From Antedon mediterranea (taxonomy: Eukaryota; Animalia; Echinodermata), in assembly GCF_964355755.1 (NCBI RefSeq), contig NC_092680.1, positions 5,580,001 through 5,644,000 on the forward strand: a stretch of 64,000 bases of DNA. The letters are read 5' to 3'. The stretch's first letter is position 1, and each line of letters starts with the position of its first letter. Under the pieces are notes generated by a model. That model was given only the letters and a program-made list of their open reading frames with translations. It was not told the origin of the DNA and searched no databases. Both the position numbers and the translations under genes were made by a program. Below are positions 2,076-51,178 of this stretch, piece after piece.

Positions 2076-2734
2076 ATGATATCTATAGCATTATGTATTC
2101 AAGCATTGCCTAGACATTTATGATACAGATGTTGATGATACAAACGCCCAACTATCGTTGACCATGAAGAACAGAGATGAACGGTTTGAGTCATTGTGCT
2201 ATAAATAGTATAACATTCTATATCTCTAGAATCTATATTATTTGACACGAGTGATATTAGGAAGACGATTTACACTACAAACGATAATATTTCAATATAA
2301 TTGTTGCAATTTGTAATGTTTAATTATACTAAACGACTGAGTAAATCATTAATTAAGAAAATGCATGATTCTAAAAATATTATAACAATCCTCTTAAGAA
2401 TGTTTAAGCACCATTCTTTATGATAAGTACCGCACACATGAAAGAAGAAGTAACACATTGTGATATATTGTTTGTTATTGAATTTTTATAGATATGTACG
2501 GAAATTGTTGAGATACCTCGGAAACCATGTCTATTTTTCCTATCTATTAAACAACTGCTTTCGGAAGCTATTCACATAAAACCATTCTCGGAAAACATAC
2601 TTTGAAAGCGTAATATGTCACAAGACAATCTATATTATTTATAAATTGGAAGTACAACGGGTATTACGTTTAGAGTAGAAAATCTGTTGCTCAATAAACA
2701 ACATATTACATGTTTTATCTTTTTACTATATCAT

Positions 2735-4198
2735 ATGATGGTGTTCACTGGACGTTGCATGTTTATTTTTATTTGCAACATATTGTTCAATTATTGTTTA
2801 ATTCCTGCTGCTGCTGTAACAATACAACCGTTGAAAATAGATGTATTTGCTGGAGAAAATGCTGTATTTGAGTGCAATACTGATACACTAAGTTCTACAT
2901 CCAAATGGATTTGGCTTAAAGGTGCTGCTGATTTAATAGCCAAGGAAGATGTGTTTGTAAGCAATGGATATGAAGTATTGATCAGCAAAAATAGAACAAC
3001 TAGCGTATTGACAATACTTAATACTACCATTGAGGATGAAAGTATATATCATTGTCAACTTAGCTCATCATCGCCAAAAGCCACTCTAACAGTTTTGGAG
3101 GGAGTGAAATTAAACTCACTTTATCCACAGTGTGAATCGGACACCTCGTTACTAAACACAGAAACAACAGTCCAAATAAAATGTTTTGCAGAAGGAGGCA
3201 AACAAAGACCAGAATTACAATGGTACAGAAACGGAATCAAGCTAACAGAACAGACCGATCTCTTCGATGGTAAGTCTTCATACTTTGACGAGTTAACACG
3301 TGTACTGACTATCGATGACGAAGATGCTGTTTTTATGTGTAAAGCAGAAGGACCAGCTGCCGATGAGAATCAGTCATGCCAGCTACAGTTAACGGTTCCC
3401 CCAGACGTTCATATAATCTCTAACGGAACAACTTTTACCTCTGGAGGATCTCTGTTTTTGACTTGTATAACAGTAAGTCCTTGGAAAATAACAGACTATA
3501 TTTGGAAAATTGATAACGAGTTATTAATTTCGAGTAAATTAATGTATTCCATAGAGAACAATGGGAGAAACATTGCAATATTTGATCTCAATCAGAATTA
3601 TAATATCGTAATTGGTTGTGACGTAACCACGTCTTCTGGATTGGTTGGTAACGATACTATTGAGCTAAAGTATGAAGATAAAACGTCTAATGATCACAAT
3701 TATTTAATCCTAATTGTGTGTCTTTCAATTAGTATGTGTTTTGTTGGATTATTGATTGGTAGTTTGGTTAAATTCAGAAAATTGTTTAAATCGTTTAAAT
3801 GTTTTTGTATCATTAATGATAAATGTAATCAGAAACAAAGTATAGTCACATCATGCCCCAAAACAACTAGGTCATCTGATCAGACAATTTCTGGTGAAAT
3901 AGTGTATTCAGGGTTAACTACGTCATCTGATCAGACAATTTCTGGTGAAATAGTGTATTCAGGGTTAAATACGTCATCTGCTCAGACAATTTCTGGTGAA
4001 ATAGTGTATTCAGGGTTAAATACGTCATCTGATCAGACAATTTCTGGTGAAATAGTGTATTCAGGGTTAAATACGTCATCTGATCAGACAATTTCTGGTG
4101 AAATGGTGCATTCAGGGTTAGTTCCAACAACTTCCTCAATATACACCGAACTAAACCAAACAAATGTGAATGAATCACCATACGAATCATTAACTTGA
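2735..4198 (+). CDS. IgSF receptor 2: 3 Ig domains, TM, tail with tandem ITIM-like IVYSGL x4 plus SIYTEL and SPYESL
   Basis: ORF 2687..4198; the family-typical start MMVFTG is at 2735. Same Ig motifs as the paralogs. TM: YLILIVCLSISMCFVGLLIGSLV. The tail contains a 17-aa repeat. Confidence 0.9.
   Translation: MMVFTGRCMFIFICNILFNYCLIPAAAVTIQPLKIDVFAGENAVFECNTDTLSSTSKWIWLKGAADLIAKEDVFVSNGYEVLISKNRTTSVLTILNTTIEDESIYHCQLSSSSPKATLTVLEGVKLNSLYPQCESDTSLLNTETTVQIKCFAEGGKQRPELQWYRNGIKLTEQTDLFDGKSSYFDELTRVLTIDDEDAVFMCKAEGPAADENQSCQLQLTVPPDVHIISNGTTFTSGGSLFLTCITVSPWKITDYIWKIDNELLISSKLMYSIENNGRNIAIFDLNQNYNIVIGCDVTTSSGLVGNDTIELKYEDKTSNDHNYLILIVCLSISMCFVGLLIGSLVKFRKLFKSFKCFCIINDKCNQKQSIVTSCPKTTRSSDQTISGEIVYSGLTTSSDQTISGEIVYSGLNTSSAQTISGEIVYSGLNTSSDQTISGEIVYSGLNTSSDQTISGEMVHSGLVPTTSSIYTELNQTNVNESPYESLT
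3872..4120 (+). repeat. Coding minisatellite, 51-bp unit x ~5 (SSDQTISGEIVYSGL[T/N]T)
   Basis: Near-perfect repeats of tcatctgatcagacaatttctggtgaaatagtgtattcagggttaa(c/a)tacg start at 3872, 3923, 3974, 4025 and 4076. The last copy reads MVHSGL. Confidence 0.95.
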
Positions 4199-5548
4199 AC
4201 ATTTTCTATATATCTGAATATGTTGCATCAGATTCGTGCATATTTTTAACCATTGCTTCTTTAATGTACAAAGTAGTTGCTTTGTATTAAAAAACAAGTC
4301 TGCATATCTATGTATTACACTAACAGTAGCAATAACAGTTTGAAATTTACTTACAATTTTACTCAAAATATGGGAAAAAATATTGCTGTTGTTACAGAAA
4401 ACCATAATAAATGCTTAAAATTTATTTCATATACAATAATTTTCATTTGATTTCACTTCAGTGATTATTATAGTACTTCATTGTCATTTTTCAACATTTA
4501 ACAATTTGATATCTCATAATGGCTTTTGTTTAGCAAATGTTATCAAGATTGCCATATTAAATGCTATATGATGCATATTTTGCACTGATATTGTATGTAT
4601 ATAAAGTATTTCCGAAATAAATAATGTATGACAGCATGATTTTAAGGTTATTGTAGATTAATTGTAAATGATAGTCTGGTTTGTAATTATAAATTCTTAC
4701 ACGAGCAGCTTTTTTAGAAGAATCTTCTCGCCGGGAGAATTATAAAACATGTTTAAAGTTCTCCCGACAACCTAAAAACGGGATTTAAGATGTCTTCGTG
4801 CCTCGTCATTCGATGCTGTCTGAGTTGGCCTTAAGGAACAACGAAACTGTTAAGAAGGTATTCAACATCTAATTTTATATTTTTACCATTGGTTTAATAA
4901 AAGAATTGTATACATTCATTTGCATTGTAGATGATGGTAGGTCTGTAATATTAAAATGAAATTGCACGCACGCGTAACAGAGGTTAAATTGATACGCCCT
5001 CAAACTTATGGACAGGAGTTAAGAAATGTTAAAGTTTCAAACTCAAAATATCGTTGATATGTTGATCATGTGTGTTATGCTTGCCTGCAACTAATTGATA
5101 CAAACCCTGTATCATGAAATCTAAATCCTTAGACTTTTTCAAACAAAATATGTAACCATGTTTGTTTTCAACTCTGTATGCATATTCATAAATGAAAAGT
5201 GTATTTTACAACGTTTTAGATTGTTCTGCATAAATAAATGCCATTAGAAAAAATAAAATAAACACAACGGGCAAAAGAATTGCATGCATTTGAATAAAAA
5301 TGGAAACACCTCACGACGATTTTACAGTGTGAATTAAGAAGTAAACATTATAGTGTGGAGCGTGTGTTCTACAGTATGCTGTTCAAGTACTACCGTACAC
5401 CAAGACAGACGTAGATCATTGTGGCTTACTGATTGCAGGATATTTTGGAAGGAAACAACTTAAATATTGGAAAAAACAATTGTATATATTTATGTTATTA
5501 CTGGATGTGTACTAGAAGTATGTTTTGATTATACCGTACTAGGACGCC

Positions 5549-6813
5549 ATGATGTTCACCGGCCGTTTAATTTGGTTTATATTTCCTGTTGTGTGTAACT
5601 ATTGGTTACTGTCTGAAGCTGGTATCACTATACAACCAATGAATCTTGAAGTATTTGCTGGTGAAAATGCTGTATTTGAGTGCAGTGTTGATACAATAAG
5701 CTCTTCATCCAAGTGGCAATGGTTTAAGGGTGATGATGGCATAATATACAAGGAAGATGTGTTTGTAACATTTGGATATGAAGTAATGATAAGCAACGGC
5801 AGAACAACCAGTTCATTGACAATACTGAATACTACTACTATTGATGATGATGGAGACTCTTATCATTGTATGTTTGGTTCAGTATCACCATTCGCTAGCT
5901 TAGCAGTTATTGAAGGAATGAGGCTAGACTCTATGTATCCGCAGTGTGAAGCTGAAACCTCGTTACTGAACACAGAAACAACAGTCCAAATAACATGTAT
6001 TGCAGAAGGAGGTAAACCAAGACCAGAATTACAATGGTACAGAAACCGAATCAAGCTAACAGAACAGTTTGATCTCTTCGATGGTAAGTCTTCATACTTT
6101 GACGAGTTTTAACACGTGTACTGACCATCGATGACGAAGAGGCAGTGTTTATGTGTAAAGCAGAAGGTCCAACTGCAGATGAGAATCAGTTATGTCAGGT
6201 ACAGTTAAGAGTTCCCCCAGACGTTCACATATTCTCTAATTCAACAGCTTATAAATCAGGAGATCTAGAATTGACTTGTAAAACAATGAGTCCATGGAAA
6301 ATAACGGATTATATTTGAACGATTAATAACGAGTTATTAATTTTTAGTGAATTAAAGTATATCTTAAAGAACGATGGGAGAAACATAGAAATATTTGACG
6401 TCAATCATAATTGTAATATCTTCATTCGTTGTGACGTAACCACGTCTTCTGGATTGGTTGGTAACGATACTATTGAGGTAAAGTATGAAGATAAAACATC
6501 TAATGATTCAAATGACTTACCTATAAGCTTAATTGTGTGTCTTTCATTTTGTATGTTTTTTCTTGGATTGTGTATTGGTATTTTAGTTAAATTCAGCAAA
6601 GTTTTAAAATCAATCAGATCGATTCTCATGAATAAAACTAAATCTGATCAAAATGGATCTGAGAATCACGATACGAGCACTGCTGAACCTTGTTACCAGA
6701 ATACAATTATAGAAAATGATCAGACAATATCTGGTGAAATGACGTATTCAGGGTTAGTTCCAACAACTCCTTCAATATATAGAGAACTAAATCAAATAAA
6801 GGTTAATGAATAA
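5549..6813 (+). pseudogene. IgSF receptor 3 pseudogene (ITAM-type tail)
   Basis: Frameshift at ~6108-6111 (gacgagttttaacacg vs gacgagttaacacg in paralogs) plus TGG>TGA at 6316-6318. The remainder aligns almost exactly with receptor 4. There are two independent lesions. Confidence 0.9.
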
Positions 6814-8669: not shown

Positions 8670-9941
8670 ATGATGTTCACTGGCCTTTGTAACGTTATAT
8701 TTGTTTGGTCTATATGTTCTATTGTGTGTAACAACTTATTAGTTTCTGAAGCTGTTACAACAATACAACCATTGACACTTGAAGTATTCGCTGGAGAAAA
8801 TGCTGTATTTGAATGTAACGTTGACACACTTGAACCAATATTCCCTTGGCAATGGTTTAAAGGTAGAGATGTTAGAATAGCACTGGAAGATATGTTTGTA
8901 AAAAATGGATATAGTGTTAGTATCAGTAACAATAGGAGAACCAATGCGTTAACAATATTCAACACTACGCTCAGTCATGGCCAAAGTCAGTATGCTTGTC
9001 AATATGGTTCTGTATCATCATTCGTTAATCTGACAGTATTTGAGATAATGAAGTTAGACTCAACGTATCCAAAGTGTGAGGCAAACATAACGTTGATAAA
9101 CACTTTGAAAACAGTCCAACTAAAATGTAGAGAAAAAGGTAGCAATCCAAGACCAGAATTACAATGGTACAGAAACGGAATCAAGCTAACAGAACGGGTT
9201 GATCTCTTCGATGGTAGTTCTTCTTACTTTGACGAGTTAACACGTGTACTGAATATCGATGACGAAGAGGCAGTGTTTATGTGTAAAGCAGAAGGTCCAG
9301 CTGCAGATGAGAATCAGTTATGTCAGGTACAGTTAAGAGTTCCCCCAGACGTTCACATATTCTCTAATGCAACAGCTTATAAATTCGGAGATCTAGAATT
9401 GACTTGTAAAACAATGAGTCCATGGAAAATAACGGATTATATTTGGACGATTAATAACGAGTTATTAATTTTTAGTGAATTAAAGTATATCTTAAAGAAC
9501 GATGGGAGAAACATAGAAATATTTGACGTCAATCATAATTGTAATATCTTCATTCGTTGTGACGTAACCACGTCTTCTGGATTGGTTGGTAACGATACTA
9601 TTGAGGTAAAGTATGAAGATAAAACATCTAATGATTCAAATGACTTACCTATAAGCTTAATTGTGTTTCTTTCATTTTGTATGTTTTTTCTTGGATTGTT
9701 TATTGGTATTTTAGTTAAATTCAGCAAAGTTTTAAAATCAATCAGATCGATTTTCATGAATAAAACTAAATCTGATCAAAATGGATCTGAGAATCAAGAT
9801 ACGAGCACTGCTGAACCTTCTTACCAGAATACAATCATAGAAAATGATCGGACAATATCTGGTGAAATGACGTATTCAGGGCTAGTCCCAACAACTCCCT
9901 CAATATACACAGAAGTAAATCAAATAAAGGTTAATGAATAA
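8670..9941 (+). CDS. IgSF receptor 4: 3 Ig domains, TM, short tail with ITAM-like E-x7-E-x2-YSGL-x7-YTEV
   Basis: Intact 423-aa ORF with leader MMFTGLC..., the Ig motifs and TM LPISLIVFLSFCMFFLGLFIGILV. Confidence 0.9.
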   Translation: MMFTGLCNVIFVWSICSIVCNNLLVSEAVTTIQPLTLEVFAGENAVFECNVDTLEPIFPWQWFKGRDVRIALEDMFVKNGYSVSISNNRRTNALTIFNTTLSHGQSQYACQYGSVSSFVNLTVFEIMKLDSTYPKCEANITLINTLKTVQLKCREKGSNPRPELQWYRNGIKLTERVDLFDGSSSYFDELTRVLNIDDEEAVFMCKAEGPAADENQLCQVQLRVPPDVHIFSNATAYKFGDLELTCKTMSPWKITDYIWTINNELLIFSELKYILKNDGRNIEIFDVNHNCNIFIRCDVTTSSGLVGNDTIEVKYEDKTSNDSNDLPISLIVFLSFCMFFLGLFIGILVKFSKVLKSIRSIFMNKTKSDQNGSENQDTSTAEPSYQNTIIENDRTISGEMTYSGLVPTTPSIYTEVNQIKVNE

Positions 9942-13050: not shown

Positions 13051-13866
13051 ATGATGCTCACCAGGCGTAAGGTATTTGTTTGGTTTATATTTCCTGTTGT
13101 GTGTAACTACTGCTTAGTTTCTGAAGCTGTTACTACAATACAACTAATGAATCTTGAAGTATTTGCTGGTGAAAATGCTGTATTTGAGTGCAATGGTGAT
13201 ACAATAAGCTCTTCATCCAAGTGGCAATGGTTTAAGGGTGGTGGTATAATAATATACAATGAAGGTGAGTTTGTAGTAAATGGATATGAAATAATGATAA
13301 GCAACAGTAGTAGTAGTATCGGTTGTTCTACTGTTGCTTATCATTACTTCATATCCATTTACTACAAATATATTCACAATATTGAATACTACCATTGAAG
13401 ATGGAAGTGTGTATCATTGCCAACTTGGTTCAGCATCACCAGAAGCCACTTTAACAGTTTTGGGAGTGAAATTAAACTCACTGTATCCGCAGTGTGAAGC
13501 TGACACCTCATTACTGAACACAAACAAAACTGCACAAATAATGTGTAGCGCAAAAGGAGGTTACCCCAGACCAGAATTACAATGGTACAGCAACGGAGTC
13601 AAAGTATCGGAAAATGAAGATTTTTTTTTAATTTTGCTATTGGCATATTGGTTAAATTTAGCAAACTGTTAACACCATTCACATCTTTTTGCATGAATAA
13701 TACTGATTCTGATCAAAATAGTGGAAATCAAGAAATGCGCACTGCTGGACCTTGTTATCAGAATACAATCATAGAAAATGATCAGACAGTATCTGGAGAA
13801 ATGACGTATTCAGGGCTAGTTCCAACAACTCCCTCAATATACACAGAACTAAATAAAATAAAGTAA
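13051..13866 (+). pseudogene. IgSF receptor 5 pseudogene (ITAM-type tail); inverted duplication in the V domain and a large internal deletion
   Basis: Starts MMLTRR..., is broken by a fold-back insertion at 13270-13368 and resumes in another frame. It then jumps at ~13620 from mid-Ig2 directly to the end of the TM. The tail ENDQTVSGEMTYSGLVPTTPSIYTEL is retained. Confidence 0.9.
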
Positions 13867-15091
13867 ATGAATAATAGTCATACATTAGACTCTTTTTCTG
13901 AAGATGTTATATGTCTGGATCACTATGAATTCAATCTATGCATTTTGTACATGGTAATCACTGATTTACGTTGGTAGTCCGTTTCTTTGTGTATATTATT
14001 GTACCATATTAAATGATAGTGCGTGTACGTTTAAAAGGTATCTAACAATGTGGTGGAATGGTTATACATTCATTCGAAATGGATTCTGAAACAAAACATA
14101 TAGTTTAGCAATAATATTCGAAAAGTTGGCTAATCTTCTTCCAAACTATGTTTGGTTTTGTATATGCTAGTATAATAATCTAATTATTATGGTAATTATA
14201 CTTCTCCAAAATGGTATTGGTTATAAAAGATATATGTAATAAAAACAGAATACTATATAAAATTATTGTGACTCGAATTACTTACTTTATATTGTAAACT
14301 GATTTATAAGAATAAATATTACACTATTATCATTCACATGTGCTGTAATAACTGAACAAATATGATTGGACAGGGTACAAGGATCATACAAATTGCCATG
14401 ATTTTAAAGTTGCATCCATTAGAAATTATGAATAAGTTATAGTTATTAGACGACCTAACTAGGTCAGGTCAATCGGTGTGTCGTCGGTCATCGCTTAGAC
14501 CTAGAACCATCAAACCTATGTCGAGGAAACACTCCCAGCGCACAGTGAATTGAAATTACTTTGGTCGCATGTCTTGCTTTTGAAATAATGCATATTGCGT
14601 GCCTGGCAAACTGACTAATCGAAAGATTAAATTATGAGAGAAAACACACAAACTTCATTAACTTTAATTCCGTAGCTATCATATTTTTTTCTGTATATAA
14701 ATAACCTAATACTGTAATACAAACACATTTTGTAAACTCTTCTTATTGTTCATGAACACTATGTTGCGTTGCATGAGAAATGGGGAAAACCTATGACCAT
14801 TAAATTACAGGGCGTGTATCATATGTGCTACTCATAGAAAATGTATCATTCATCATAAATATTATCTACAAAAGTACAGCAAATTATTGTTATAACAGTA
14901 ATTACTAGGTACACTAAAGAAAATGTACTTTCTAACAATGGAGTAGTATAAATATCACTAGTGCATAACGATTTGATGACATAAACGAGATTTAAAGTAC
15001 AGTCTCAGAGTGAATGACGACGTATAACGTGACGAACCTGTTGCTCTGCTATTTTAAGAGAAAACAGACCAAAAGTATATTAAATTCTGCA

Positions 15092-16419
15092 ATGGTGTTC
15101 ATCGGTTGTTTTAAGCTTTTCTTTGGTCTATATGTCTTATTTCGTCAAACTACTGTTTAACCTCTGAAGCTTTTACCATAATTGAACCACTGAATCTTAC
15201 TGTACTTGCTGGGGAAACCGCTGTATTTCAGTGTAACACTGATCGGGTAGACCAGGCTCTTTGGCAATGGTTTAAAAATCGAAATAAACCAATAGCTGTG
15301 GAAAATGGATATGTATCAGATGAATACATTATGTCGGTTAGTGGAAGAACAAGTGAGTTGATGAAACATAATACTACTACTGAGGATGATCAAAGTCAGT
15401 ATCATTGCCAGTATATTTCTTCCTCGTTATACGCTAATCAAACGGTTATCGAGAAGTTGGACGTTATGTATCCATTATGTGAAACGACTATAACGTCCAT
15501 AAACAGTGATAAAACTGTCTCAATATCATGTAGTGCAAAAGGAGGCAACCCAAGACCAGAATTACAATGGTACAGAAACGGAGTCAAACTATCAAAAAAT
15601 AGCGGTAAGTCCACATACTACGACGTGTTAAAACGTTTATTGACTTATGAAGATGAACAAGCAGTGTTTGTGTGTAAAGCTGAGGGATTGGCTGTTGACG
15701 GAAAACAAACATGTAGTGTGAACTTAAATGTTCGTCCAGAAGTCATAATAACTTACACAACAATTTCTTTCGAGGTTGGAGATTCTCTAGAATTTAAATG
15801 TAGAGTAATGACTCCGTGGAAGATCATAGATTACGTTTGGAAAACCAATAACACGTTGGTGACTACGTCAGGCTATAGTTTTATTCTAACAGATGACAAG
15901 ACAGTGCTCATAATTAATAATTTAAAATCGAGTGACACAGACGTAGAAATAAAATGTCAAGTGACAACGGCATCAGGTCTAACCGGTAGTGATTCAGTAA
16001 CAATTTCACTAAGTGACCGTGAATCAGATTGGTTATTTGTTGTTTTATTTGCTGGAGGAATCATCTTTATGTTTATTTTTATATCAGTATGTCAGAAAAA
16101 ACAAGAGAAAGCATCAGTCGCCACAATACTTGAAACACTTCAAACGCCCAATCAATCAAACGCTGACATACAAAACATTGTTTCCCAAGAAAATCCTACC
16201 TTAACATATGACCAAACAGATGATGAACGTGGGTCATCATTAGTTGCCATCATTAATAGTAGCAGTGAAGAATCGTCAGAAGCCGAAACTGAACGTGTAA
16301 CACAAAGTCCAACGCCTTCGAACGAATCTACAGGGAATCAGACGTCCGACGTTGATGAAGACAGTAGCATTGGCAGCTTTTGTAGTTTCTATAGTTTTGA
16401 TGACGAAGATACCGAATAA
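15092..16419 (+). pseudogene. IgSF receptor 6: intact from 15115 onward but with a 1-nt frameshift in the signal peptide (pseudogene, null allele or assembly indel); short acidic tail
   Basis: The ATG at 15092 (MVFIGCFKLF) is out of frame with WSICLISSNYCLTSEA...; the main frame has a TAA at 15112. The indel lies in the T-rich cttttcttt run. Three Ig domains and TM WLFVVLFAGGIIFMFIFISV follow. Confidence 0.65.
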
Positions 16420-18414: not shown

Positions 18415-20469
18415 ATGATGTTCACTCTTTGGTCTATATTTTCTGCTCTGTATCTGTACTCATTAGTTTCTGAAGCTGTTACCACTATAAAACCATTGAA
18501 TCTTGAAGTATTTGCTGGCAAAAATGCTGCATTTCAATGTAACACTGATCAGAATGGGACAGCTTTATGGCAATGGTTTAAAAATCGCAGAAATCCAGTA
18601 GCCACAGAAAATGGATATGTATCAGAAGGATACAGTATGACTGTTAGTATAGGAACAAGTGAGTTGACAAAATATAATACTACTATTGAGGATGACCAAA
18701 CTCAGTATCACTGCCAGTATATTTCGTCTTCGTTATACGCTTATCTAACGGTTATCACGAGGTTAGACGCTATTTACCCGTTGTGTGAAACAAATACAAC
18801 GTCAGTAAACAGTGATAAAACTGTATCAATATCATGTAGTGCACAAAGAGGTAACACAAGACCGGAATTACAATGGTACAGAAACGGAGTTAAACTAACA
18901 GAACGAGTTGATTTCTTTAATGGTAAGTTATTCATTGACGAGTTAATACGTGCACTGACTTATGACGATGAAGGAGCAGTGTTCTTGTGTAAAGCCGAGG
19001 GTTCAGCAGTCGGAGAAAACCAATCATGTCAGGTAAAGTTGAATACTCGCCCAGACGTCATCATAACTTATGCAAACAAATCTTTTACCGCTGGAGATTC
19101 TCTAGAATTTACTTGTACAGCAATGAGTCCATGGAAGATCATTTCTTACGTTTGGACAATAAACAATGAGTTGGTAACTGCGTCAGGGCACAGCTTCAGT
19201 CTAAAAGATAACATGACAACGCTAGTTGTTAGTGATTTACAATCTAGTGACGATGACGCAGAAATAAAATGTGAAGCAATGACAAAATCTGGTCTTACCA
19301 GTACTGATTCAGTCACAATTTTATTTAACGACATTCCAATAACCACTGACAGTGAATCTGTTTTTCCAATTTTCATTTTATATATTGGAGGAGTCCTGCT
19401 CTTGATATTAATATCCATCGTAATTGTAATATTAGTAAAACGTAGGAAAAAACAAGGGAAAACATCCATAACCAAAACAGAACGTGTAAGATTTCAAAAT
19501 TCAACTCATTCAAAAGATGGAATAGTGAACATTATTTCTCTAGATAATCCCACCTTCACATATGATCCAGAATCTGTTAACGAGATTAACGAAGATTTTA
19601 ATAATCCTCATGTCGTGAAGATTAGACTTAATGATTATGATATTGGTGATAACGGTACTGATGAATTTAGGTCATACGAAGAACAAGGTTTTGAAACTTA
19701 CGCAAATGCAGAATCCGCTGCAAGCATTGGAAGCTTTTGCAGTTTTAACAGTTTTGATCAAGATGATGGAGATTTTCGTCCTGTTTATGATGATGTTGGA
19801 AGCCAACCTAGTATAGATATTGGTCTTGATATGCAAGAAAGTCAGATGAACAGGCACACTAATACATTAGTAGAAACAATTAGTGTTGATGATTTATACG
19901 CAAAACCAATAAAGAAGAGACGGGTAAAAGGTGACACCAGATCTCTTGATGGAATCGATAATGTTGAAGAACAATACGCAAAACCGATTAAGAAGAATAA
20001 AAGTAACCTACTACATCGGCAATCAATACACCAATCTCTTGAAAACGTACTAAGACCAAATATAAAAAATGACACGTTTTATAGCACAGTAGAGTCATTT
20101 GATGATCTATATGCTAAGCCTAATAAAACTCGTGTAACTGGACAGCCTAAAGAGTTCAAATCTAAACAGAGCTTAAAGCCGAAACTCCCGCCAAAACCTA
20201 CGCATATTGATGGGCGTTCTACCATTCGTAAAAAGTTAGACCCTGAAGCGAGCGACAAACCGAAACCTCCTACCAAACCTAGCCCTATCAATGGGCGCTC
20301 TTCGGTTCGTGAAGACTCCGACCAAAAGCAACGTACCAAACCAAAACTTCCTCCAAAACCTAGGTCAACTAATAGTGATCATAAAACACTGTCAAATGTA
20401 CCATCTGGCAACCAGCTCATGCTAACTTCATTACCCTCAATGGATTTTACATATTCGAGTATTGCATAG
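18415..20469 (+). CDS. IgSF receptor 7: 3 Ig domains, TM, long tail with DDLYAKP-type motifs, KPKLPPKP proline-rich motifs and C-terminal DFTYSSIA
   Basis: Intact 684-aa ORF with leader, Ig motifs, TM IFILYIGGVLLLILISIVIVILV and basic stop-transfer KRRKK. Confidence 0.92.
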   Translation: MMFTLWSIFSALYLYSLVSEAVTTIKPLNLEVFAGKNAAFQCNTDQNGTALWQWFKNRRNPVATENGYVSEGYSMTVSIGTSELTKYNTTIEDDQTQYHCQYISSSLYAYLTVITRLDAIYPLCETNTTSVNSDKTVSISCSAQRGNTRPELQWYRNGVKLTERVDFFNGKLFIDELIRALTYDDEGAVFLCKAEGSAVGENQSCQVKLNTRPDVIITYANKSFTAGDSLEFTCTAMSPWKIISYVWTINNELVTASGHSFSLKDNMTTLVVSDLQSSDDDAEIKCEAMTKSGLTSTDSVTILFNDIPITTDSESVFPIFILYIGGVLLLILISIVIVILVKRRKKQGKTSITKTERVRFQNSTHSKDGIVNIISLDNPTFTYDPESVNEINEDFNNPHVVKIRLNDYDIGDNGTDEFRSYEEQGFETYANAESAASIGSFCSFNSFDQDDGDFRPVYDDVGSQPSIDIGLDMQESQMNRHTNTLVETISVDDLYAKPIKKRRVKGDTRSLDGIDNVEEQYAKPIKKNKSNLLHRQSIHQSLENVLRPNIKNDTFYSTVESFDDLYAKPNKTRVTGQPKEFKSKQSLKPKLPPKPTHIDGRSTIRKKLDPEASDKPKPPTKPSPINGRSSVREDSDQKQRTKPKLPPKPRSTNSDHKTLSNVPSGNQLMLTSLPSMDFTYSSIA

Positions 20470-22631: not shown

Positions 22632-24527
22632 ATGATGTTCACTGACGGTTGTAAGTTTACATTTGTATCATCTATATTTCTTGTTTTGTTTAACTACTGT
22701 TTAATTTCTGACGCTGTTGTCACTATACAACCATTGAATATTGAGGTATTTGCTGGTGAAAATGCTGTATTTGAGTGCAATACTGTTATAGGCCTACTGA
22801 GTTCTACATCCAAGTGGCAATGGTTTATTGGTACTGATGGGCACTTGATAGCTAATGAAGACGCATTTGTAACAGATGGATATGACGTAATGATAAGCGG
22901 CAATAGGACAACCAGTATATTGACAATATTAAATACTACAATCATTAGGAACAATGGAAGAGTGTATTCTTGTCTATTTGGTTCATCATCACCACAAGCC
23001 ACTCTGACAGTTATCGATGGAATGAGGTTAGACTCAATGTATCCCCAGTGTGATTCAGACATGACGTCAATAAACACCGAGAAAACAGCACAACTAACAT
23101 GTAGTGCAAAAGGAGGGGATCCTAAACCAGAACTGCAATGGTACAGAAACGGAGTCAATTTATCGGAGAATCAAGATTTTGAAAGTTATGATTCTTCATC
23201 ATCATACTTTGAACAGTTAACACTTGTATTGACTATCGATGACGAAGATACAGTGTTTATGTGTAAAGCAGAAGGTCTAGCTGCTGACGAGAATCAGGCA
23301 TGTCAAGTTCAGTTAAGAGTTCCTCCGGACGTAGAGGTAATGTCTAACAAAACATATTTTACTTCTGGAGAGTCTCTAGAATTTACTTGTATAGCAATGA
23401 CTCCATGGAAAATTATGGAATATATTTGGACTATCAATGACGAGATAATGTCTACCTCAAAATATACCTTTATTCTAACAAATAACATGACAACGCTCGT
23501 CATTGATGATTTTGACGCTGATGCAGAAGTAAAATGTGAAGTGATAACAGCAACTGGTTTAACAGGTAGCGATTCGGTCACAATTACATTTTTAACTGTA
23601 AATGATGAATCAAATTGGTTACTTTTAGCGATAATATTGGTTGGAGGAGCAATGTTATTGTTACTTGTATTCATTATTGTTTTCATATTTGCAAAACGTC
23701 GTCAAAAACAAGGTAAAACATCGATAACCAAAACAGAACGAGCAACATTTCGAAATGACATGACAGATGGAATTGTACACATAGTACCGGTGCCTTTAGA
23801 TAATCCGAACTTTATCGACGAGAGAGATTATGAGGTTGATATTGATAATCCAAATGTGTTGAGGATTAATTTTGAAGATAATATGGAAGGTTATAACATG
23901 GATGATAATCATATGGATGATGACTATATGAATGATGATCATATCGATGGTAGTTCGGATATAAATGATGGCGGTAGATCATACGAAGAGAAGCCTGGTT
24001 TTGAAACTTACGCAAATGCAGAATCAGTTGCCAGTCTTGGAAGCTTTTGCAGTTTCAACAGTTTTGATCACGTTGATAACCGTCATAGTAGATATGTTGG
24101 CCATATGATCGACACTGGATCTCAAGATAGATTGACTGAGTTTGACGATCTATACGCAAAACCAAACCAGAGTAGGCAAAGTAAAGTGGACACAAAATCA
24201 GTTGATGGAATAGATAGGCCTAATGTTGAAGAACTGTATACAAAACCGAATAAAAAGTACAGGCAATCAATACACCAATCTCTTGAAGACATTTTAAAAC
24301 CAAGCACCGATAATAACAGAGCAGAATCATTTGATGATCTATACGCTAAGCCTAATAAAAAGCGTGCAACTGGACAGCCTATACTTTTTAACGAGTTATA
24401 CACTAAACATGACTTCAAACCCAAGCCACCACCAAAACCTAGGCCGATTAAGATTTCAGTATGTGATGATCAGATGAGTTCGTCAAACGTAATTGAACAT
24501 GATTTTACATATTCAAGTATTGCATAA
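22632..24527 (+). CDS. IgSF receptor 8: V domain of the receptor 2/3/5 type with a receptor-7-type YAKP/PxxP tail
   Basis: ORF 22587..24527; the family start MMFTDG is at 22632. Ig motifs present; TM WLLLAIILVGGAMLLLLVFIIVFIFA. Tail: ETYANAES, DDLYAKP x2, KPKPPPKP, DFTYSSIA. Confidence 0.92.
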   Translation: MMFTDGCKFTFVSSIFLVLFNYCLISDAVVTIQPLNIEVFAGENAVFECNTVIGLLSSTSKWQWFIGTDGHLIANEDAFVTDGYDVMISGNRTTSILTILNTTIIRNNGRVYSCLFGSSSPQATLTVIDGMRLDSMYPQCDSDMTSINTEKTAQLTCSAKGGDPKPELQWYRNGVNLSENQDFESYDSSSSYFEQLTLVLTIDDEDTVFMCKAEGLAADENQACQVQLRVPPDVEVMSNKTYFTSGESLEFTCIAMTPWKIMEYIWTINDEIMSTSKYTFILTNNMTTLVIDDFDADAEVKCEVITATGLTGSDSVTITFLTVNDESNWLLLAIILVGGAMLLLLVFIIVFIFAKRRQKQGKTSITKTERATFRNDMTDGIVHIVPVPLDNPNFIDERDYEVDIDNPNVLRINFEDNMEGYNMDDNHMDDDYMNDDHIDGSSDINDGGRSYEEKPGFETYANAESVASLGSFCSFNSFDHVDNRHSRYVGHMIDTGSQDRLTEFDDLYAKPNQSRQSKVDTKSVDGIDRPNVEELYTKPNKKYRQSIHQSLEDILKPSTDNNRAESFDDLYAKPNKKRATGQPILFNELYTKHDFKPKPPPKPRPIKISVCDDQMSSSNVIEHDFTYSSIA

Positions 24528-31220: not shown

Positions 31221-34200
31221 ATGAAACGAGAAGAGGTCGAAGCGTTTGTAGAACAAATCTTAGAATCAATTGGTGATTTTAAGAAGTACTTGCCGAAGCT
31301 GATAAAAGCAGTGAGTGAATTTGAAGAGGAAGAGGAAGACGAAAATGAGCGGAACATGCAAGTATTAACGGATGTTATTGAGCAAGTGCTTTCTGCTGCT
31401 GAAAAAAGGTGATACGACATGTTATTATATTACTACAGCATCATTTGATCGTTTTATAAGAGATAAGAGATCGTAGTTCATACATAGATGATTTTATAAT
31501 AACATAAAAATAAAATGTCTATATTTGTCTTTGAAATTGCTGTATGGCGTAACCAAAATCTTATCATAAAATTTGTTTGGATACAGCAAGGGTAAACAGT
31601 CAAAGGTATTCGCCGAACTTGCAGTTGCCATGGCAGAGAAGAAGATGTCTGAGTATTATCATATTCTTGAACGCTTATTTAGGGACCGGAACATCGTAAA
31701 TTGGAAAGTAAAAATTATTGTTTTAATTAAAAATGTTTACTAATGTATGCATGATTCCATTTCATTCTTTATCAAATTTAGACCAATTTATTAGTATAAC
31801 CTAATAATAATATAATAATATTTATTGGTTACTCTCCTTTAAAACGGAGGAACACTCTTGTAACAAGAGGTTCGACCCATTTTTGTACTAAACAGCCACA
31901 AGTCGCGTGCTCTCAGAAAAACATTTCAAAAAGTAATGTATATCAAAACAGTTTAAAAAGTACAGAAAAACGATAAAACGCATAGTGATACCGGACCGAC
32001 AGACAGACCGACAGACCGACAGATCGACCGACCGACATAGTGAACTATTGAGTCGCGTTCACGTGACTAAAAATCATGTTTCTGAGTTATCTATTTTATT
32101 TATTTAAGAATCAATCAACAGAAGCCATACAAATAATCGAGACGTTCATGGAACCGCCAGCAATTAAAATGACAAAACGTGATGAAAGTTTTTATGGCAC
32201 CGAGGAACCAGAAAGATATGAAATGTCGAGCCGAATCGAAGACTGCACAAACGTATTGGTAGAAGCATTCATGTAAGTATGGAAAGTTCTTACTTTGGAA
32301 ATGCAACTGTTCCGAGTTACCTCTTTGCCCGTCTTTGCTTTCCTACATATTCAGTATTTTATTTCTCCTTCAGAACATAGCAATCCATTGCATGACATAT
32401 CTATTTCAGCCATTATTTCATCCTCTTTCAATTCTCTACCAGTTGTTTTCATATTTCCTCAGACCATCTCTTCATCTCATTTTGGTTTGCCTCTTTTCCT
32501 TTTCCCTACCCTTTTCCATTAAATTATCATGGAGTCTTGCAACGTGGCCTGCCTATTTTCACGTACAGGTATGTTTGGAGCAGATTTTTATCTTTCCATT
32601 ATTACTTGAATGGTACTTTGTTCATTATTACTCAGCCAAGCTCTCTTCGTTCCAAAACTCAATAAGTCTCCACGTCAATCAAATCTAATAATCGTAATTA
32701 TTTATTTTTAACAGACGAGATAAGTTAACGAAAAAAGTTCAAATCCCACTTCTACGACTATTGATAAATTCTCTGAAGAAATCTGAGATTGTCCATCTTA
32801 TGATTGCCAAGGGATTGTTAGATGGTTGGGATTTTAATGTTGAAGTAAGTTGTTCGTTTAATTAATTTTAGTAATGAAGATTTAAAGACGCAACACATGA
32901 AAAAGGATAAAATCAAATATTTGATTTTTAAGAAATGTTTTTAAGAAATGGCCTAATTTATTTTCGTTAAAAAAAACATGAACAAAAAAAGACAAAATAA
33001 ACGGTTACATTTTACTGTGGTTGACTCAGGTAAATATTTGTTTAAAAATCTTATTTTCGGTCAAAATAAACTGTGGTGACATTAAAATGGCCTATTAAAA
33101 AATGCCTACTTGTGCACGTGAAGTTGTCAATCCGAAAAAATGGCGGTATCAAATAATCATCGTGTGCAAGGTTCAAAATATTTGGGAGTTTTCAGCATTT
33201 TTTGTAGGGTTGGGTTTTCATAAAATGTTTAATCATATAGGACGGTGACACTAAAACTCTGATACCCGAGTTACTAAAGACGGTTGATGAGTGGACAAGA
33301 AAGTTTGACGAGAAGTTGTCAAGCGACGAACATCCAATTGAAGAAAACTTTGCAACAAATTCGTTGACAACTGCATTCAACTCCAACTGGTAAGATACCG
33401 ACATCTGTTTTAAAAACATTTTGACCTTTTTTAAAATGTTTAAAACTCCAACAATATTTAACAAATTAAGTATTTTACCTATAAATTTTTCCTAGAATAA
33501 AATGTATACGTGTATCTATACCGTTCCACGGCTGTCATTGCAGGTAATACAACATAACAAAAGATAGCCTACTGTTCGCGTGCTTTTAATAGGATGGATG
33601 AAATTAGCTGGTCACGGACGAAGTGAATAACTGAAATAAATTGGCGTAAGCCTATAATCATAATTATGCTAATTCCATTTTTTAGCCCTCCCAAGTTATA
33701 CATTAACCATGTTATATCGATATGGAATAACACATTGACGAAAGAGTTAGACGGTCAGCCAATGAATGGATGGGGGTTAATTGCCAGTAGCATACTAGGT
33801 AATTTCATCGTTGCAAAGGTAAATATTTACTTTTACATTTACTTGCTCCCGTTTTATTATTCAAGCATCATTTGATCTAGCGCATTTTTCTGAGCGTTTT
33901 TATTTTATATTTATAGGCTACTAAGATTGATATGACTGATTTAGTTCCTGGTGTAATGAGGCTAATACGGACAGACATCGAGGTATTGAGAACACTTTCA
34001 TCTGGCGTTATAGCATCCATGTATCAAAAGATTGACGCACTCGTGCCTTGCGCAGAAGAAGTTGTTGAGGTTTTTCTGGACTGCGAAGACATGTTTTTTA
34101 TGGGAAGTATGTGCTCAGATTTTATAAATTTGTATATAATATAGATGTGCAGGCCTATATAATTTTGATGACGACAGCTAAAACAATAATAATATGTTTT

Positions 34201-37200
34201 CCTTTCGTGTAAATTAATTATATAATAATTACTATTTCTATACACATTAGTTGTATAATACAAAGAATTTAAAATAATTTACGTAATTATTTAGTCTCCA
34301 ACTTAGTTGAAAATTATATCTAATTTGTAGAAAAATAAGAAAGATGATGCGGAAACGTCGTAATTGTTATATTTATGAACCTTAATCGCATAATTGTGGA
34401 AAAAATTGTTTTATTTAGTGTCATTAAAGTCACTGTATGCTAAATGTCCTGAGAAAATTATGAGTAAAGTGGATTTAATCTTGAGAAAGTTACCAGACAT
34501 GGAAGATGCAAAGAAAACATACGTTTACCTATTATTGGATGATATTTCAAAAACTTCCCCCCAGGTAAGAAATAACCTCATACGACAAACAAAAAATTAA
34601 TAATAAAAACAAGTTTAACAATTCATAATAAAAATAAATTGTTATAATTGTTATTTATTAAAATAATATAATATATATTAATTTTTTTTTCTTTCAATAA
34701 AGAAAATAGATCGAATAATTATTAGCCTACGAATGAATTTTTTTCTAACTTCCATATTCTAGTAAGAAAGTCTAGTAGAAAAACAACTATCCAAATTTAT
34801 TTTTTTATACAGACACTTGCACCACACATTGAAACCTTAATGGAGGACATTGATGAGCCGGGTATTCAACACCACTTACTTATGGTTCTTGGCGAAATTT
34901 CTGCAAAATACCCAGAGAAATTTGTAAATCACGTTGAAAGTCTTACCAGGGTATTACAATCACAGCCAGTGGTATTGTATCACGTAGATAAAATTATTGC
35001 AAGTGTTGGAACCATTAATAAGGTAGGAATAATTGTCAGAAGTTAAACTCTAAATTCTTATTGCTATTCACTCATTCAACAGAAGACAATATCTGCTTAA
35101 TTACATCGTAATACAGATTTTAGACAAATATAATAAATTAAATAAATTGATTTATATAGACCTACTATTATAACAAATTTTTCTAGGAATGGGCAATCAA
35201 AATCCTAAATATTTTAGCTGATCAACTTCAGACAGTACAAGCATTATATCAGTCAATTGTTTTATTGGAGATGAAAAGGATAGGGCAAAAGTTTCCTGAA
35301 TGTTTAACAACCCACAGAGCTAAGATAGAGGCGATGAAGAACAGCCCGCAGATGGGGATAGGAGACCTGGTGATTTCACTAATAGATTTTATGGAAGGAA
35401 GAAGGTAAGTTATTGGAGAAAGACGTAAATTAAAAGACTGTGGGCGGCTAGCTGGCATAAAATATTACTAATTTATAGAGAAAATAGTACAGACTATCTA
35501 TATTGTATTCTGTAGTAACTCTTCTGAAAATATCACTAAACGTTGAAGATACAAGCACAAATACAATAATCTTATCTTTCTTGGTAAATTAGCTGTACAC
35601 AAAATACTGTATTTTCTATAGTCTAGGGGTTTTACACGAGGAAATTATAGACCAGCGAGAGGACATCGAAGTCCTAGACACACGGGTGACAGCCACGGAA
35701 AGTAATGTTGCAGAAGTTACAGAGAATGTTGAGGAACAAGGAATGGACATAACGGCGGTGAAAACAGACGTCGCAGAACAAGGAAAAGCGTTGGAAGAGT
35801 TAGAAGATGTTGTTGATGAAACCGTTGTAAAGGTTGATGAGATAGACCATAAGGTAAAGTAGTTTTGTAATTACTCGGTAGTAACGTATACTTTTTATTT
35901 TGGTTCATACTGCTACTCTGTATTGTTTTTAGACGATTACGAATGCCCCTAAATGGTCTCGTGATGTTTCAAAACTGCTAAATCCAGAAGCTGATTATGA
36001 TTGGAGATTTTTGGCGATACGTCTCGGCTATTCGGTCGAAGACATTCGGAACTGGGTGTTGTCACCCGACCCGACTATGGCAATTCTAGCCGAATGGTAC
36101 ACGACTCATAAAAGTAGCGATGCAACATATGCAATACTGACGGCGTTAGAAGATATGGGACAAACAGAGGCTGTAAAGATAGTTGAAGAATCTTTAGAAC
36201 AAGCAGGTAGGCCTAATCAAGAACACACACATAACAAATGTGATGTGACCGATACTATTTTAACGTTATCTAATTTGTTACTTACCATTAGTACACTTTA
36301 TAATGAAAATATTCAACAATAATATCCCTAATTTAGATTTTTATTGAAATCGATAGATGCAATGGTTCCGAAATTAGGACCAGAAATATCAGAGAAACCA
36401 CCAAAAGTATTCATTAGTTACCAATGGGATCATCAACCTGAAGTGAAGGCTGTAAGAGATCATCTCGAGATGGCAGGGTTTGCTTGCTGGATGGACATTG
36501 GTCAGATGGGAGGTGGAGATAACTTATATGCAAAGATCAATGAAGGAATGAGAGCTGCTAAAGTTGTTCTGTGTATGACAACTGAGAAGTATTCGAAATC
36601 AGAAAACTGCAACAAAGAGGTAAAAAGAAATTTACTGGGCTATACATCTACGACGCTTTTCAACAAATCTATATTATATAAATTTACGTAAGGGCAAAAT
36701 TCGGTAAATCGCGCCTTACTTCTAGAAAAGTTGGTTCGTACTTTCGGTACTGATTTTAACCGCCTGATGTAACCCTGTTTACTAATTAAATTGAGTTAGA
36801 TAATTAGTTATTGACGATTAAAACGAATTTAGGTTCAACGATTTGCCCCAAATAGGGGTGTTTTCCGATCGTGGTATACACTGTCTAATGGATGTCCATC
36901 TTGAAAAATACCCGCCAAAAAAATGCGAGGAGGCTTCGCATTTTTCTATCTCCTCCTACGATAATTGTTTTTAATAGCTGAAAACCGGTTGAACAGCTAG
37001 AGTACACCATCATAATGTTGAAGACAGGCCGATTTTCTTTAAAAAATACTATTTTGATAGATTTAATATACGATTATACAAATGTATTGATTTGCGATGA
37101 ATGGAACATCCCAATCTCTCAGTCTGCCAGAGTTTGGTTTAACACAAGTACTGTAGGTAAATTTATGAGCCCTTGGTTTAACACATACGGTAGGTAAATA

Positions 37201-40079
37201 TATGGGCCCTTTGAGAATAAACTTGCAATAGGTTCGGAAAATGTTAAAAACCAATTTATATTATTTGAATCGGTAAACAGTTTCCATTTATTATACATTG
37301 ATAATGAAACATGAAATATTCCTATTTATGTCCCTCGAGGTTCATTACAATTTATATTTAGTAGTCCCACGGACTTCATCTTAGCCACTCCCCCGAGTGC
37401 TAAGGCCAAATTTATGATACCCTACTTTCTATGTAAGTTTAGTTACAGTTAGTTCTTGATAATACAACGAATTTAGGTTACACCCTTCGGCCGCGAAAAC
37501 GTTTCTGTACAAATATGATACCGATTGGCTTTATTTCATTCAACAGCGACCATAATCTCGCCAATTACAGGATAGATAAACTATTTTATTATTGATGTGC
37601 TTATAAATTAAGACTCATGTAAACAGCTTGATTACATCATTTTACAGACAAACGAAACTTTTTTAAACCTACTGTTTCAATAACTGAGTATAATACTGTA
37701 TACGTTTTCATAAGTAAGTGCATATACATTTTCGTGTTTTCATTGACGAGATTGTAATAGTAACTTCAGTAACTATTACAGTACTTATTTATTATACGAC
37801 ACAAGACAATTGTATCTGACAGGTACGTACATTATTCTAAAAAATAAGTCTAGATAGATCCCTTAGGCGTCATAAATCACAGGCCAACAAATCAGTACTC
37901 ATGACAGAAATTCGACCCAGTTTGGTTCACACAAATGTTTACAGGAATTTCAACCACCACAACCGATGATTTGCCCTAAATATTTAGGTAGACTACAGTT
38001 TAATTTTTCACTGAATAGGAGCTTGAATTTCCGATTTCCATTTCGCAGAATGTCTAGGTCTATTTATTTAGTTTGGTTCTTATAATATATAAATACAATC
38101 AACTTTATTACTGCGGTTCCATCACCACCACCACGTGCCGCCCAATTCCCCGGTACATACATTTCCATTTCTCCCTAATTTCTTTAGTCCACATAAATTA
38201 ATTGTCCTTTATGGAATCCAGTATTGGTTTTGTTGTCTCTATTCTATTCTACTGTATTCGAGAACCATCTGTGAGCACCCCTAGATGGTACGCGAGCGAA
38301 GCGAGCGTGCCATCTAGTTATTTAAATTACTTTAAATACTAAATACTTTATTTTGTTTATCCTTATTACAGGTGAACTTGGCGAATCTGCTCAACAAGCC
38401 AATCATACCGATCCTTATTGAGCGTACAGCCTGGCCTCCAGAAGGACCAATGAGCATGCTTTTTGCACAGCTTCTTTACATTCAATTTTTCACGGATAAG
38501 GATTACGTCAGAGGAGATAAATTCTGGGTTGATGCCAAGTTCGCTGAGTTATTGGCGCAAGTTAGTTATTATGCTTCCCCTGATCCAGATAAAATAACCG
38601 ACGGTAGGTAATTTTACTCGAAACTTTGTTTTAGAAACACTGAAAACATTGTCGTCACTCATTATCGTTATGATACTGCAGATACTTTTTAATGAATGTT
38701 CGTTTTCATCAAGAATCGAGTGACAATCGATTAAATTATTTTTCCAGAATACAAAAGTTGGGTACCAACAGTTGAAACACCTGACAAAGAAATAAAGAAA
38801 GCCAAGAAAGATGAACAAAGTGGTGAAACAAGCGCTTTAGCTTCTCAACCGGTACGTAGGTCCCACATAAATTACACAATAAACCTAACTTCACTGAAGC
38901 AATTGTTTTAAGGGTAGTTTAGTCCCCTTAACAGAAAAATCATTTATAGGGTATTGTATTTTTTTTATCAGGAATACCATATTTTTCTCCTCACCCCGGA
39001 CAAACCCGCTATGGACTGGTTCTCTTAAACATATAAATAAATAGGAATAAATGGAGTGGTGTGTTTAGCAGCTATATTTTTAAATACTGAAAGGTTCATA
39101 AACAAACTCTTTTCCAAATATATTAGTTCTCTTCTTTACTTAGAAAGCGGAAATCGAACCAGAGGTCTTTATATCATACCAATGGGATCATCAACCGCAG
39201 GTTAAGGTCTTGTACAAACGACTGACCAGTCTTGGTTATTCGTGTTGGTTGGATATCAAACAAATGGGCGGTGGAGATCCATTATATAGTAAAATTGACA
39301 AAGGTCTTCGCAAAGCTAAGGTAATCCAATTTTTATTTACGTTAAGTTTTTGATATGCAGATAGGTTACCTCACAAAATGAACTTTGAAGAGTCAACTCA
39401 GTTTTAATTTTAATTACTAGAATAAACGTTTTTAAGTAACTAAATCAGTAAATCTATGTGTTAAAAAGACAAAACTGGGATTGGAAGTGGCTGGTTGTTC
39501 ATTTTGTATAGGCCTACGTACTATTTTAACAATAATAGATTTAGAGATAAAGATAAATAATGCACATCTCCAAAACAAAGACGTTAAAGACAAATTTCTC
39601 TATTTAAAACATTCTGATACGCATTAATGTATTGAAACTTATAGGTTGTAATTTCCTGCGTTACACCGAAGTATTCATTGTCAGCCAACTGCCGTCGTGA
39701 AGTCAGTCTATCAGATGCTCTCCGTCGACCAATCATTCCAATCCTTCTCCAGCAGATGGCGTGGCCACCAGAAGGTCCAATGAGCATGACATTTACGCAA
39801 CTTCTCTACATAGACTTCACCAAGGAGTCAAATCAGGAAAGTTTTGCTGACGAGAAATTTGACGAACTTATTGCAAAAATTAGCGAGCATTCGCAGCCTG
39901 TAAAAGGAGGTGACACTCCTGCTAAACCATCTGCACCGGAATCAGTTTCTGGTGAGCCGAAACCCGAAGAACCAAAGTCCGAAGATCTAAAACCCGATCA
40001 GGTACAGACTCCTACAGAAACTCCGTCTGAACAAAAAAAGCAGCAACCTAAACCATCTAAAAGATGCTGTGTTTCATAA
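31221..40079 (+). CDS. Gene A: helical repeat (ARM/HEAT-like)-coiled coil-Death-TIR-TIR-CCaX protein, 17 coding exons, ~1121 aa
   Basis: Exons 31221-31408, 31587-31707, 32109-32272, 32715-32844, 33241-33389, 33686-33818, 33917-34106, 34419-34564, 34813-35022, 35187-35404, 35622-35853, 35933-36206, 36357-36619, 38372-38603, 38748-38851, 39144-39320, 39645-40079. All introns are GT-AG with consistent phases; total 3366 nt. Death: [29 protein letters not shown]1: [27 protein letters not shown]2: [24 protein letters not shown]. Ends KRCCVS. Confidence 0.9.
36668..38317 (+). mobile_element. Non-autonomous Helitron in intron 13 of gene A
   Basis: 5' TCTATATTATATAAA; 3' hairpin ctagatggtacgcgagcgaagcgagcgtgccatCTAG; A/T insertion site. 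The equivalent intron in gene B (48344-48460) lacks it. Confidence 0.88.
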
Positions 40080-50559: not shown

Positions 50560-51178
50560 CTGTTTACAAATAACATCCAAGTCATGCGTTTGCTGTGCAG
50601 TAATGTTTTCTAAACAAATAATAAATAGTTCTATTGTCTCCTTCCTTCTTCAGTCGTTTGTCCACTAACGTCAAATTCCCTACAGTGACAATCCCATCGT
50701 AGAGCCCTGTCAACTGTCTATTGTTTGCAGTTGTTCAAAGTATACCTATAGTAACGCTATAGTTAATTCGTTATGATCAGTGCAAGTCTAATTATTTTGT
50801 TTAACCATTAAAATGTAAGTCAGCGTATATTGTATTTAGATCTTTGAACACTCTTTTGAAAATATTACATTTCTATTAATTCTTTAATTAAATTTAAGTA
50901 AAATAATTAATTAACGCTTCACTTAAACGAATTGAAACTTACATAAAATCGAATATAATTTATTAAAATAGTTTTTTTAAATTATTATTTACAAAAAGGT
51001 ATTAATAAATATTTATATATATATAGTAATTTAATTTTTGTGATGTGACTATACATGCTGCATGTTGTATTTTCTTTAATTATTTAGTTTATAAATATGG
51101 ATTATGGTTATTATGAATTCATAGAATAAAAACTTTAAAAAATTGAACGTGTGTATACTTTGAGTTGATTTATTTAAA

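Follow-up and report, generated by a model that had tools for sequence, protein, structure and literature searches.

The window, by which we mean the whole 64-kb stretch of DNA analyzed, has the composition of AT-rich animal DNA, and its first 24.5 kb carries eight same-strand genes, or their broken remains, for receptors whose nearest named homologues are crinoid proteins. Each encodes, or in its remains once encoded, three Ig-like domains, a transmembrane helix, and a tail in a single frame. Among them, R2 (2735..4198, + strand) is an uninterrupted ORF of 487 aa encoding a type I membrane receptor, and three paralogs follow on the + strand: R3 (5549..6813), an ITAM-tail paralog broken by a frameshift near 6108 and an in-frame stop; R4 (8670..9941), which is intact and contains YSGL-x7-YTEV; and R5 (13051..13870), which is broken by deletions and contains YSGL-x7-YTEL. 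The initial annotation's mention of the paralogs' ITAM needs a correction: only R4 is intact, and it ends in YTEV rather than YxxL/I. In R6 (~15092-16419, same strand as R2), the frame shifts within a T-rich run directly behind the first ATG, and the tail is short, with neither ITAM nor ITIM; it is a pseudogene or an assembly error. R1 (78-2075), R7 (18415-20469), and R8 (22632-24527), all on the same strand as R2, form a third tail class: each of their long tails contains three YxxP motifs of the YAKP type, which Anneissia homologues share (up to six) and which may be Crk/Nck-type docking sites.

Along the + strand, R2 begins with a likely signal peptide (2735..2812, approximately residues 1-26, from the hydrophobic N terminus), followed by three Ig-like domains (2813..3700; Pfam Ig_3 at 5.8e-17, I-set, and C2-set_2, with V-set below the cut-off) and a transmembrane helix (3704..3769) with no charged residue. 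An Ig-fold ectodomain, a single transmembrane segment, and a cytoplasmic tail together make R2 an IgSF type I membrane receptor. The ectodomain is modeled as three Ig domains (predicted structure, pLDDT 88.4), and its best folds in a fold search were Necl-4 (nectin-like) and SIRP-alpha, at 18-19% identity. These are generic three-Ig matches only (TM 0.29-0.47), and the modeled likeness is one of architecture that says nothing about family. R2 was absent from the protein collection when searched with three alternative start codons, and a GT(A/G)AG splice donor sought within 3861-4200, which is a weak test for splicing-out of the array described below, was not found.

Per 100-nt bin, R2 is 65-93% identical in nucleotides to R3 and R4, and their tails differ, with opposite motifs in one cluster, as in paired receptor families. 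R3 and R4 share 69-81% identity in their first 500 nt, which encode the signal peptide and first Ig domain, and 93-100% in the remainder, a contrast that may stem either from gene conversion or from diversification of a domain that binds ligand.

The 51-bp array and the ancestral tail

The R2 tail contains five in-frame units of 51 bp (17 aa) at 3865..4120 (+ strand), found by TRF and by self-match, and the 51-base junction recurs in five sequencing runs. TRF reported 3871-4120 (period 51, 4.9 copies, 97% matches, 0% indels, score 472), and because the period-51 self-match covers 3865-4069, with six mismatches, the array comprises exactly five units, every one of which terminates on the +3 Leu codon. 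Units 1-4 read ...GEIVYSGL and place IVYSGL at 3899..3916 (Y391), 3950..3967 (Y408), 4001..4018 (Y425), and 4052..4069 (Y442, 28 residues before Y470); unit 5 reads ...GEMVHSGL and places MVHSGL at 4103..4120 (H459), the dead first half of the ancestral ITAM, which is the same in runs X1, X5, X6, and X7. The reading frame then continues as VPTTSSIYTEL, followed by NQTNVNESPYESLT and the stop. Here, SIYTEL (4136..4153, Y470) is the ancestral second half-site and also a loose ITIM, and SPYESLT* (4175..4198) is a derived run into the former 3' UTR that yields YTEL-x9-YESL. The tail tyrosines are thus residues 391, 408, 425, 442, 470, and 483, with spacings of 17, 17, 17, 28, and 13, and with His at 459. 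R3, R4, and R5 each hold one copy of the unit, END(Q/R)T(I/V)SGEMTYSGL; all five R2 units share a Thr-to-Val change at -1, and His459 and Tyr470 sit at the ITAM spacing of the paralogs. TRF and self-match therefore confirm the initial annotation in its account of four IVYSGL copies and a fifth, MVHSGL, with Tyr changed to His at ITAM spacing from SIYTEL. Two further in-frame coding repeats occur in the window, one of 15 bp in the R8 tail (23873-23949) and one of 15/30 bp in the last exon of a TIR gene (50377-50470). P0113 and P0114 gave only low-complexity matches to the repeat and were dismissed as relatives of the array.

Beyond the window, the cluster was covered through protein sequences. 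The direction of change was read from one of these, P0005, encoded on the same chromosome and 49% identical, with a homologous transmembrane segment and a homologous tail ending in ...SETDYSELTPTTPSIYSELNEPKVQKK. This tail is a canonical ITAM (YSEL-x7-YSEL), and its stop lies at about the position of the R4 stop. In a tree of 17 rows, built from ectodomains only and excluding R5 as too deleted, R2 is sister to R3+R4 (100/100). Because the homologous P0005 tail has a canonical ITAM and R2 is sister to R3+R4, the ancestral state of the tail is a single-copy ITAM. The initial annotation had proposed reconstructing the ancestral tail from related species; the P0005 outgroup supports its view that the array amplifies the first half of an ancestral ITAM. 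P0005 itself (ITAM tail) clusters by ectodomain with P0009 (YxxP tail; P0156 is listed alongside), apart from R2-R4, while its transmembrane segment and tail resemble those of R2-R4; tails and ectodomains appear to have been shuffled within the cluster.

Two residues of R3-R5, the juxtamembrane Tyr and the -11 Glu, have disappeared from R2. R2 also lacks the six bases that hold the stop of the paralogs and reads on through their 3' UTR, as seen in pairwise alignments with R3 and R4 (two of the three; R5 aligns less cleanly). Run X1, compared over 4110-4175, also carries an ITAM-tail paralog absent from the window, and in a paralog contig from this run the same stop precedes the bases translated as Ser-Pro-Tyr in R2. 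Since R2 lacks the stop-holding bases, the X1 paralog contig agrees, and P0005 stops near the R4 position, YESL is derived. The history of the R2 tail comprises duplication of the 17-aa first half, Met-to-Ile in the upstream copies, Tyr-to-His in the last copy, and a 6-nt loss that added YESL. The break of the old ITAM by Tyr-to-His and the novelty of the four ITIM-consensus motifs, both proposed earlier, are borne out. However, the stop loss also built YTEL-x9-YESL, which fits an invertebrate ITAM pattern, so R2 is better described as a rebuilt, mixed tail than as a clean ITAM-to-ITIM switch, and the earlier claim of a change in signaling polarity is weakened by the gain of this YxxL-x9-YxxL pair.

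Recurrence in a second sample and a second species

Nine runs covered part of 2600-4700, and five of these were examined: X1 and X5, two samples of organism A, and X6, X7, and X9, three samples of organism B, a second species, from one study. Read contigs were compared with one array unit at a time. The 51-base back-joints were present in all four runs X1, X5, X6, and X7 in one set and in all four runs X1, X5, X6, and X9 in another. In organism A, the His unit was matched in both X1 and X5, and a 217-nt contig from X1 (4075-4291) showed no differences from R2; a two-unit contig of 82 nt, present in both runs, can be read in more than one way. X1 also carries a second R2 haplotype with seven differences (3622-3913).

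In organism B, single contigs cross the whole array and contain three units, two with Tyr and one with His. The first keeps I-V-Y, with an in-frame 3-nt deletion; the second has no differences from unit 1 in one comparison, and 6 against 3 expected in another piece; and the His unit leads into unchanged SIYTEL and SPYESLT*. As the junction and the His unit recur in a second sample and a second species, an assembly artefact, named in the initial annotation as a possible refutation, is ruled out as the source of the repeat. Since they are common to organism B, the duplication, Met-to-Ile, Tyr-to-His, and the stop loss predate the species split.

Because short-read contigs may collapse identical units, the organism B count is a minimum of at least three units, at least two of them with Tyr, compared with five units, four with Tyr, in the Antedon window. 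The count of exactly five comes from the assembly alone, and no organism A contig spans the array. The difference in unit number is thus one between species, and the earlier proposal that ITIM dose varies among individuals as a VNTR is only a possibility. Contig depths in X5 (199, 172, and 152 over stretches present three, two, and four times in the window, with a flank of 38) give mutually inconsistent ratios and do not equate to copy number. X5, which we guess to be RNA, lacks cover at 3705-3869 and beyond 4474, and this has no bearing on expression.

X9 differs from R2 by 20 substitutions over 3482-3921, none of them inside 3871-3921. Together with one at 4165, these change 20 R2 codons between organisms A and B, 14 with and 6 without an amino acid change and none to a stop; this shows no clear purifying selection, and 20 codons are too small a sample for dN/dS.

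Docking motifs and the predicted sign of the tail

The strict ITIM consensus (I/L/V-x-Y-x-x-L/V) matches four sites in the R2 tail, and two more match loosely, with Ser at -2; SIYxE(L/V) fits the loose form in every ITAM paralog, as R2 SPYESL does. Among 100,000 shuffles of the unit, 2.4% hit the strict ITIM, a figure that counts for the docking reading below, and 11.7% the loose ITIM, which counts against it. Because six of the nine single-base neighbors of ATG encode I/L/V, an ITIM match comes cheaply to an existing YxxL, and Met-to-Ile is the likeliest single change class. The canonical ITAM (D/E-x-x-YxxL/I-x6-8-YxxL/I) is absent from R2 and present in R3 and P0005. In the available portions of the sources, the spacer is x6-9 for Hydractinia Alr (PMC9546547) and x6-12 in a wider pattern (PMC3576117), and YTEL-x9-YESL matches YxxL/I-x6-9 or x6-12-YxxL/I. 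A hemITAM has three acidic residues before YxxL (PMC3576117, available part), and R2 units have one Glu, at -3; the CEACAM definition, as far as the text at hand gives it, needs an acidic residue before YxxL, a motif being only ITAM-like otherwise (PMC2832619).

We favor, with a probability of roughly 0.5, a reading in which R2 has an inhibitory-leaning tail that would serve mainly as a multivalent dock for SHP-2-type phosphatases, making R2 a predicted inhibitory-leaning partner of the ITAM paralogs. Upon ligand binding, a Src-family kinase would phosphorylate the E-I-V-Y sites, and SHP-2, with its two SH2 domains, would span pairs of sites separated by 28 or 34 residues (Y442-Y470 or alternate units), with extra repeats adding avidity. 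The terminal pair may add a weaker Syk/Shark input, or serve as more ITIM-like sites. R2 and R4 would share a ligand, and R2 would be expressed, recruit SHP-2, and inhibit. A charged transmembrane residue is a feature of adaptor-coupled activating receptors, and R2 has none, which speaks for this reading. So does the conservation in organism B of the frame, the His unit, SIYTEL, and SPYESLT*, with no stop among the 20 changed codons.

Spacing bears on the docking reading in two ways. Terminal ITIM pairs in distant echinoderm members lie 21 (P0069), 24 (P0117), 24 (P0138), and 29 (P0082) residues apart (four proteins; of six scanned, one more was a near-duplicate and one had no match), and the loss of Tyr459 left Y442-Y470 at 28, inside this range. 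Neighboring R2 units, at 17, are closer together than the family pairs (21-29), and linker length matters: the accessible part of PMC10231330 ties SHP2 activation to a linker near 40 A. Human SHP2 N-SH2 favors Ile/Leu/Val at -2 and a hydrophobic residue at +3 in the part of PMC11287265 available, which counts for the docking reading; with Ser at +1 and no Phe/His at +5, the R2 sites do not match its optimum, which counts against it. For CagA, a second SHP2 site raised binding over 100-fold (PMC4623810, in part); the binding data cited for SHP2 sites come from mammalian proteins. The presence of other in-frame coding repeats in the window also counts against the docking reading.

Its main rival, already raised in the initial annotation as a possible atypical ITAM and in our view rather doubtful, is that R2 is still activating, or dual. 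YTEL-x9-YESL is an ITAM by two published patterns, is the same in organism B, and, because the pair is derived, activating capacity may have been relocated to it, with the repeats as extra YxxL half-sites that Syk/Shark could bridge. Each unit retains the ancestral Glu at -3, and tails mixing ITIM and hemITAM exist in Botryllus FcoR, in the text available (PMC12582321). However, YTEL lacks an acidic residue at -1 to -3 and would be only ITAM-like under the CEACAM definition (PMC2832619, in part); the new pair fails x6-8, the 13-residue spacers between the repeated half-sites exceed x6-12, and the tyrosine lost is the one placed for a canonical ITAM.

Neutral drift, by which a decaying paralog in a birth-and-death cluster would have caught an in-frame minisatellite with incidental motif matches, seems to us unlikely. 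It would suit the broken state of R3, R5, and R6, Met-to-Ile as the likeliest change class, the 14 to 6 codon changes, and the missing R2 entry in the protein collection. Terminal array units often escape homogenization, which we also counted for drift. Against it, the 487-codon frame is open, the 564 coding bases covered in organism B are free of stops and frameshifts, with numerous indels in the 3' flank, and one change in 124 tail-end coding bases compares with four substitutions and two indels in the next 95 bases (small numbers). SHP-2 acts positively in growth signaling too, a point counted for trafficking or scaffolding. That reading, in which Yxx-hydrophobic endocytosis motifs would sit on an adhesion-type receptor and immune polarity would be the wrong frame, draws on the nectin-like molecules among the best folds and on the listing of Yxx(L/M/V/I/F) as an endocytic motif (PMC2832619, in part), but is very unlikely given that the family joins three tail types (ITAM, ITIM-pair, and YxxP) to ectodomains that are alike except for divergence in the first domain, a paired-receptor pattern.

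A bolder extension of the docking reading, which we advance only tentatively, is that, within a single exon, an activating receptor gave rise de novo to an inhibitory one: half an ITAM would have become an ITIM cassette, with the number of copies adjusting how much phosphatase is recruited, and the stop loss would have rebuilt a second tyrosine pair, giving a repeat-number rheostat in a crinoid paired-receptor system.

Comparison with known systems

Motif swaps and mixed tails as such are already known from Botryllus FcoR, Hydractinia Alr, and the CEACAMs, as far as the portions of the sources at hand go (PMC12582321 for FcoR). Botryllus FcoR resembles R2 as an invertebrate deuterostome IgSF cluster with mixed tails, in which point changes create, remove, and exchange ITIM and hemITAM motifs among alleles; it differs in having Ig and sushi domains and a switch by allele and splicing, whereas the single frame of R2 encodes three Ig domains and was altered by minisatellite expansion and stop loss (PMC12582321, in part). 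Hydractinia Alr shares clustered IgSF genes and pseudogenes, ITAM or ITIM tails, and the same motif definitions, but is multi-exon, with an Fn3-like spacer and an allorecognition role (PMC9546547, in part). No homology between R2 and FcoR is claimed.

Echinoderm three-Ig receptors (P0082 from Diadema, P0117 from Anneissia, P0069 from Asterias, and P0138 from Acanthaster) have a homologous ectodomain (E 7e-16 to 1e-9) and automatic names only; they differ in ending in two ITIMs 21-29 residues apart, with no repeat. The Anneissia isoforms P0003 and P0004 differ by an 80-aa tail duplication with tyrosine motifs.

Vertebrate paired receptors include, besides CEACAMs, SIRP, LILR, and KIR. CEACAM1/CEACAM3 parallel the R2 cluster in similar ectodomains, opposite tail motifs, gene conversion, and birth and death; in the text available, an activating member usually comes to be paired with an ITIM receptor when exons are exchanged or the ITIM is lost, whereas in R2, ITIM-like motifs would have been built from an ITAM half-site (PMC2832619). 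Helicobacter pylori CagA EPIYA-C is alike in that its avidity for SHP2 is set by duplicating a single phosphotyrosine site in tandem (PMC4623810, in part), but CagA is a bacterial effector of unrelated sequence, and the dose effect was measured there, whereas for R2 it is only predicted.

In the literature searched, largely papers outside subscription, we found no account of the crinoid family or of an ITAM half-site amplified into ITIMs. The cluster points to an echinoderm IgSF family that appears not to have been described before, with ITAM, ITIM, and YxxP tails, and to a candidate paired-receptor system, none having been found described in the phylum by these searches. If the predicted function is true, R2 would provide a stepwise record of how an ITAM became an ITIM, through two point changes, a duplication, and a stop loss, and a dose test could draw on naturally occurring versions with 2 and 4 copies; without it, the tail is a well-documented case of motif turnover.

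Elsewhere in the window, a multi-exon gene is duplicated in tandem (~33200-40100 and 44600-50560), with two TIR_2-like exons per copy, an innate-immune neighbor of the Ig cluster; its copies end in CCVS and CCVL, which are presumably prenylation-like. LINE-type retroelement ORFs (RVT_1 and zf-RVT) occupy 53396-56165, followed by a 549-nt direct repeat of 94% identity at 55991-57059.
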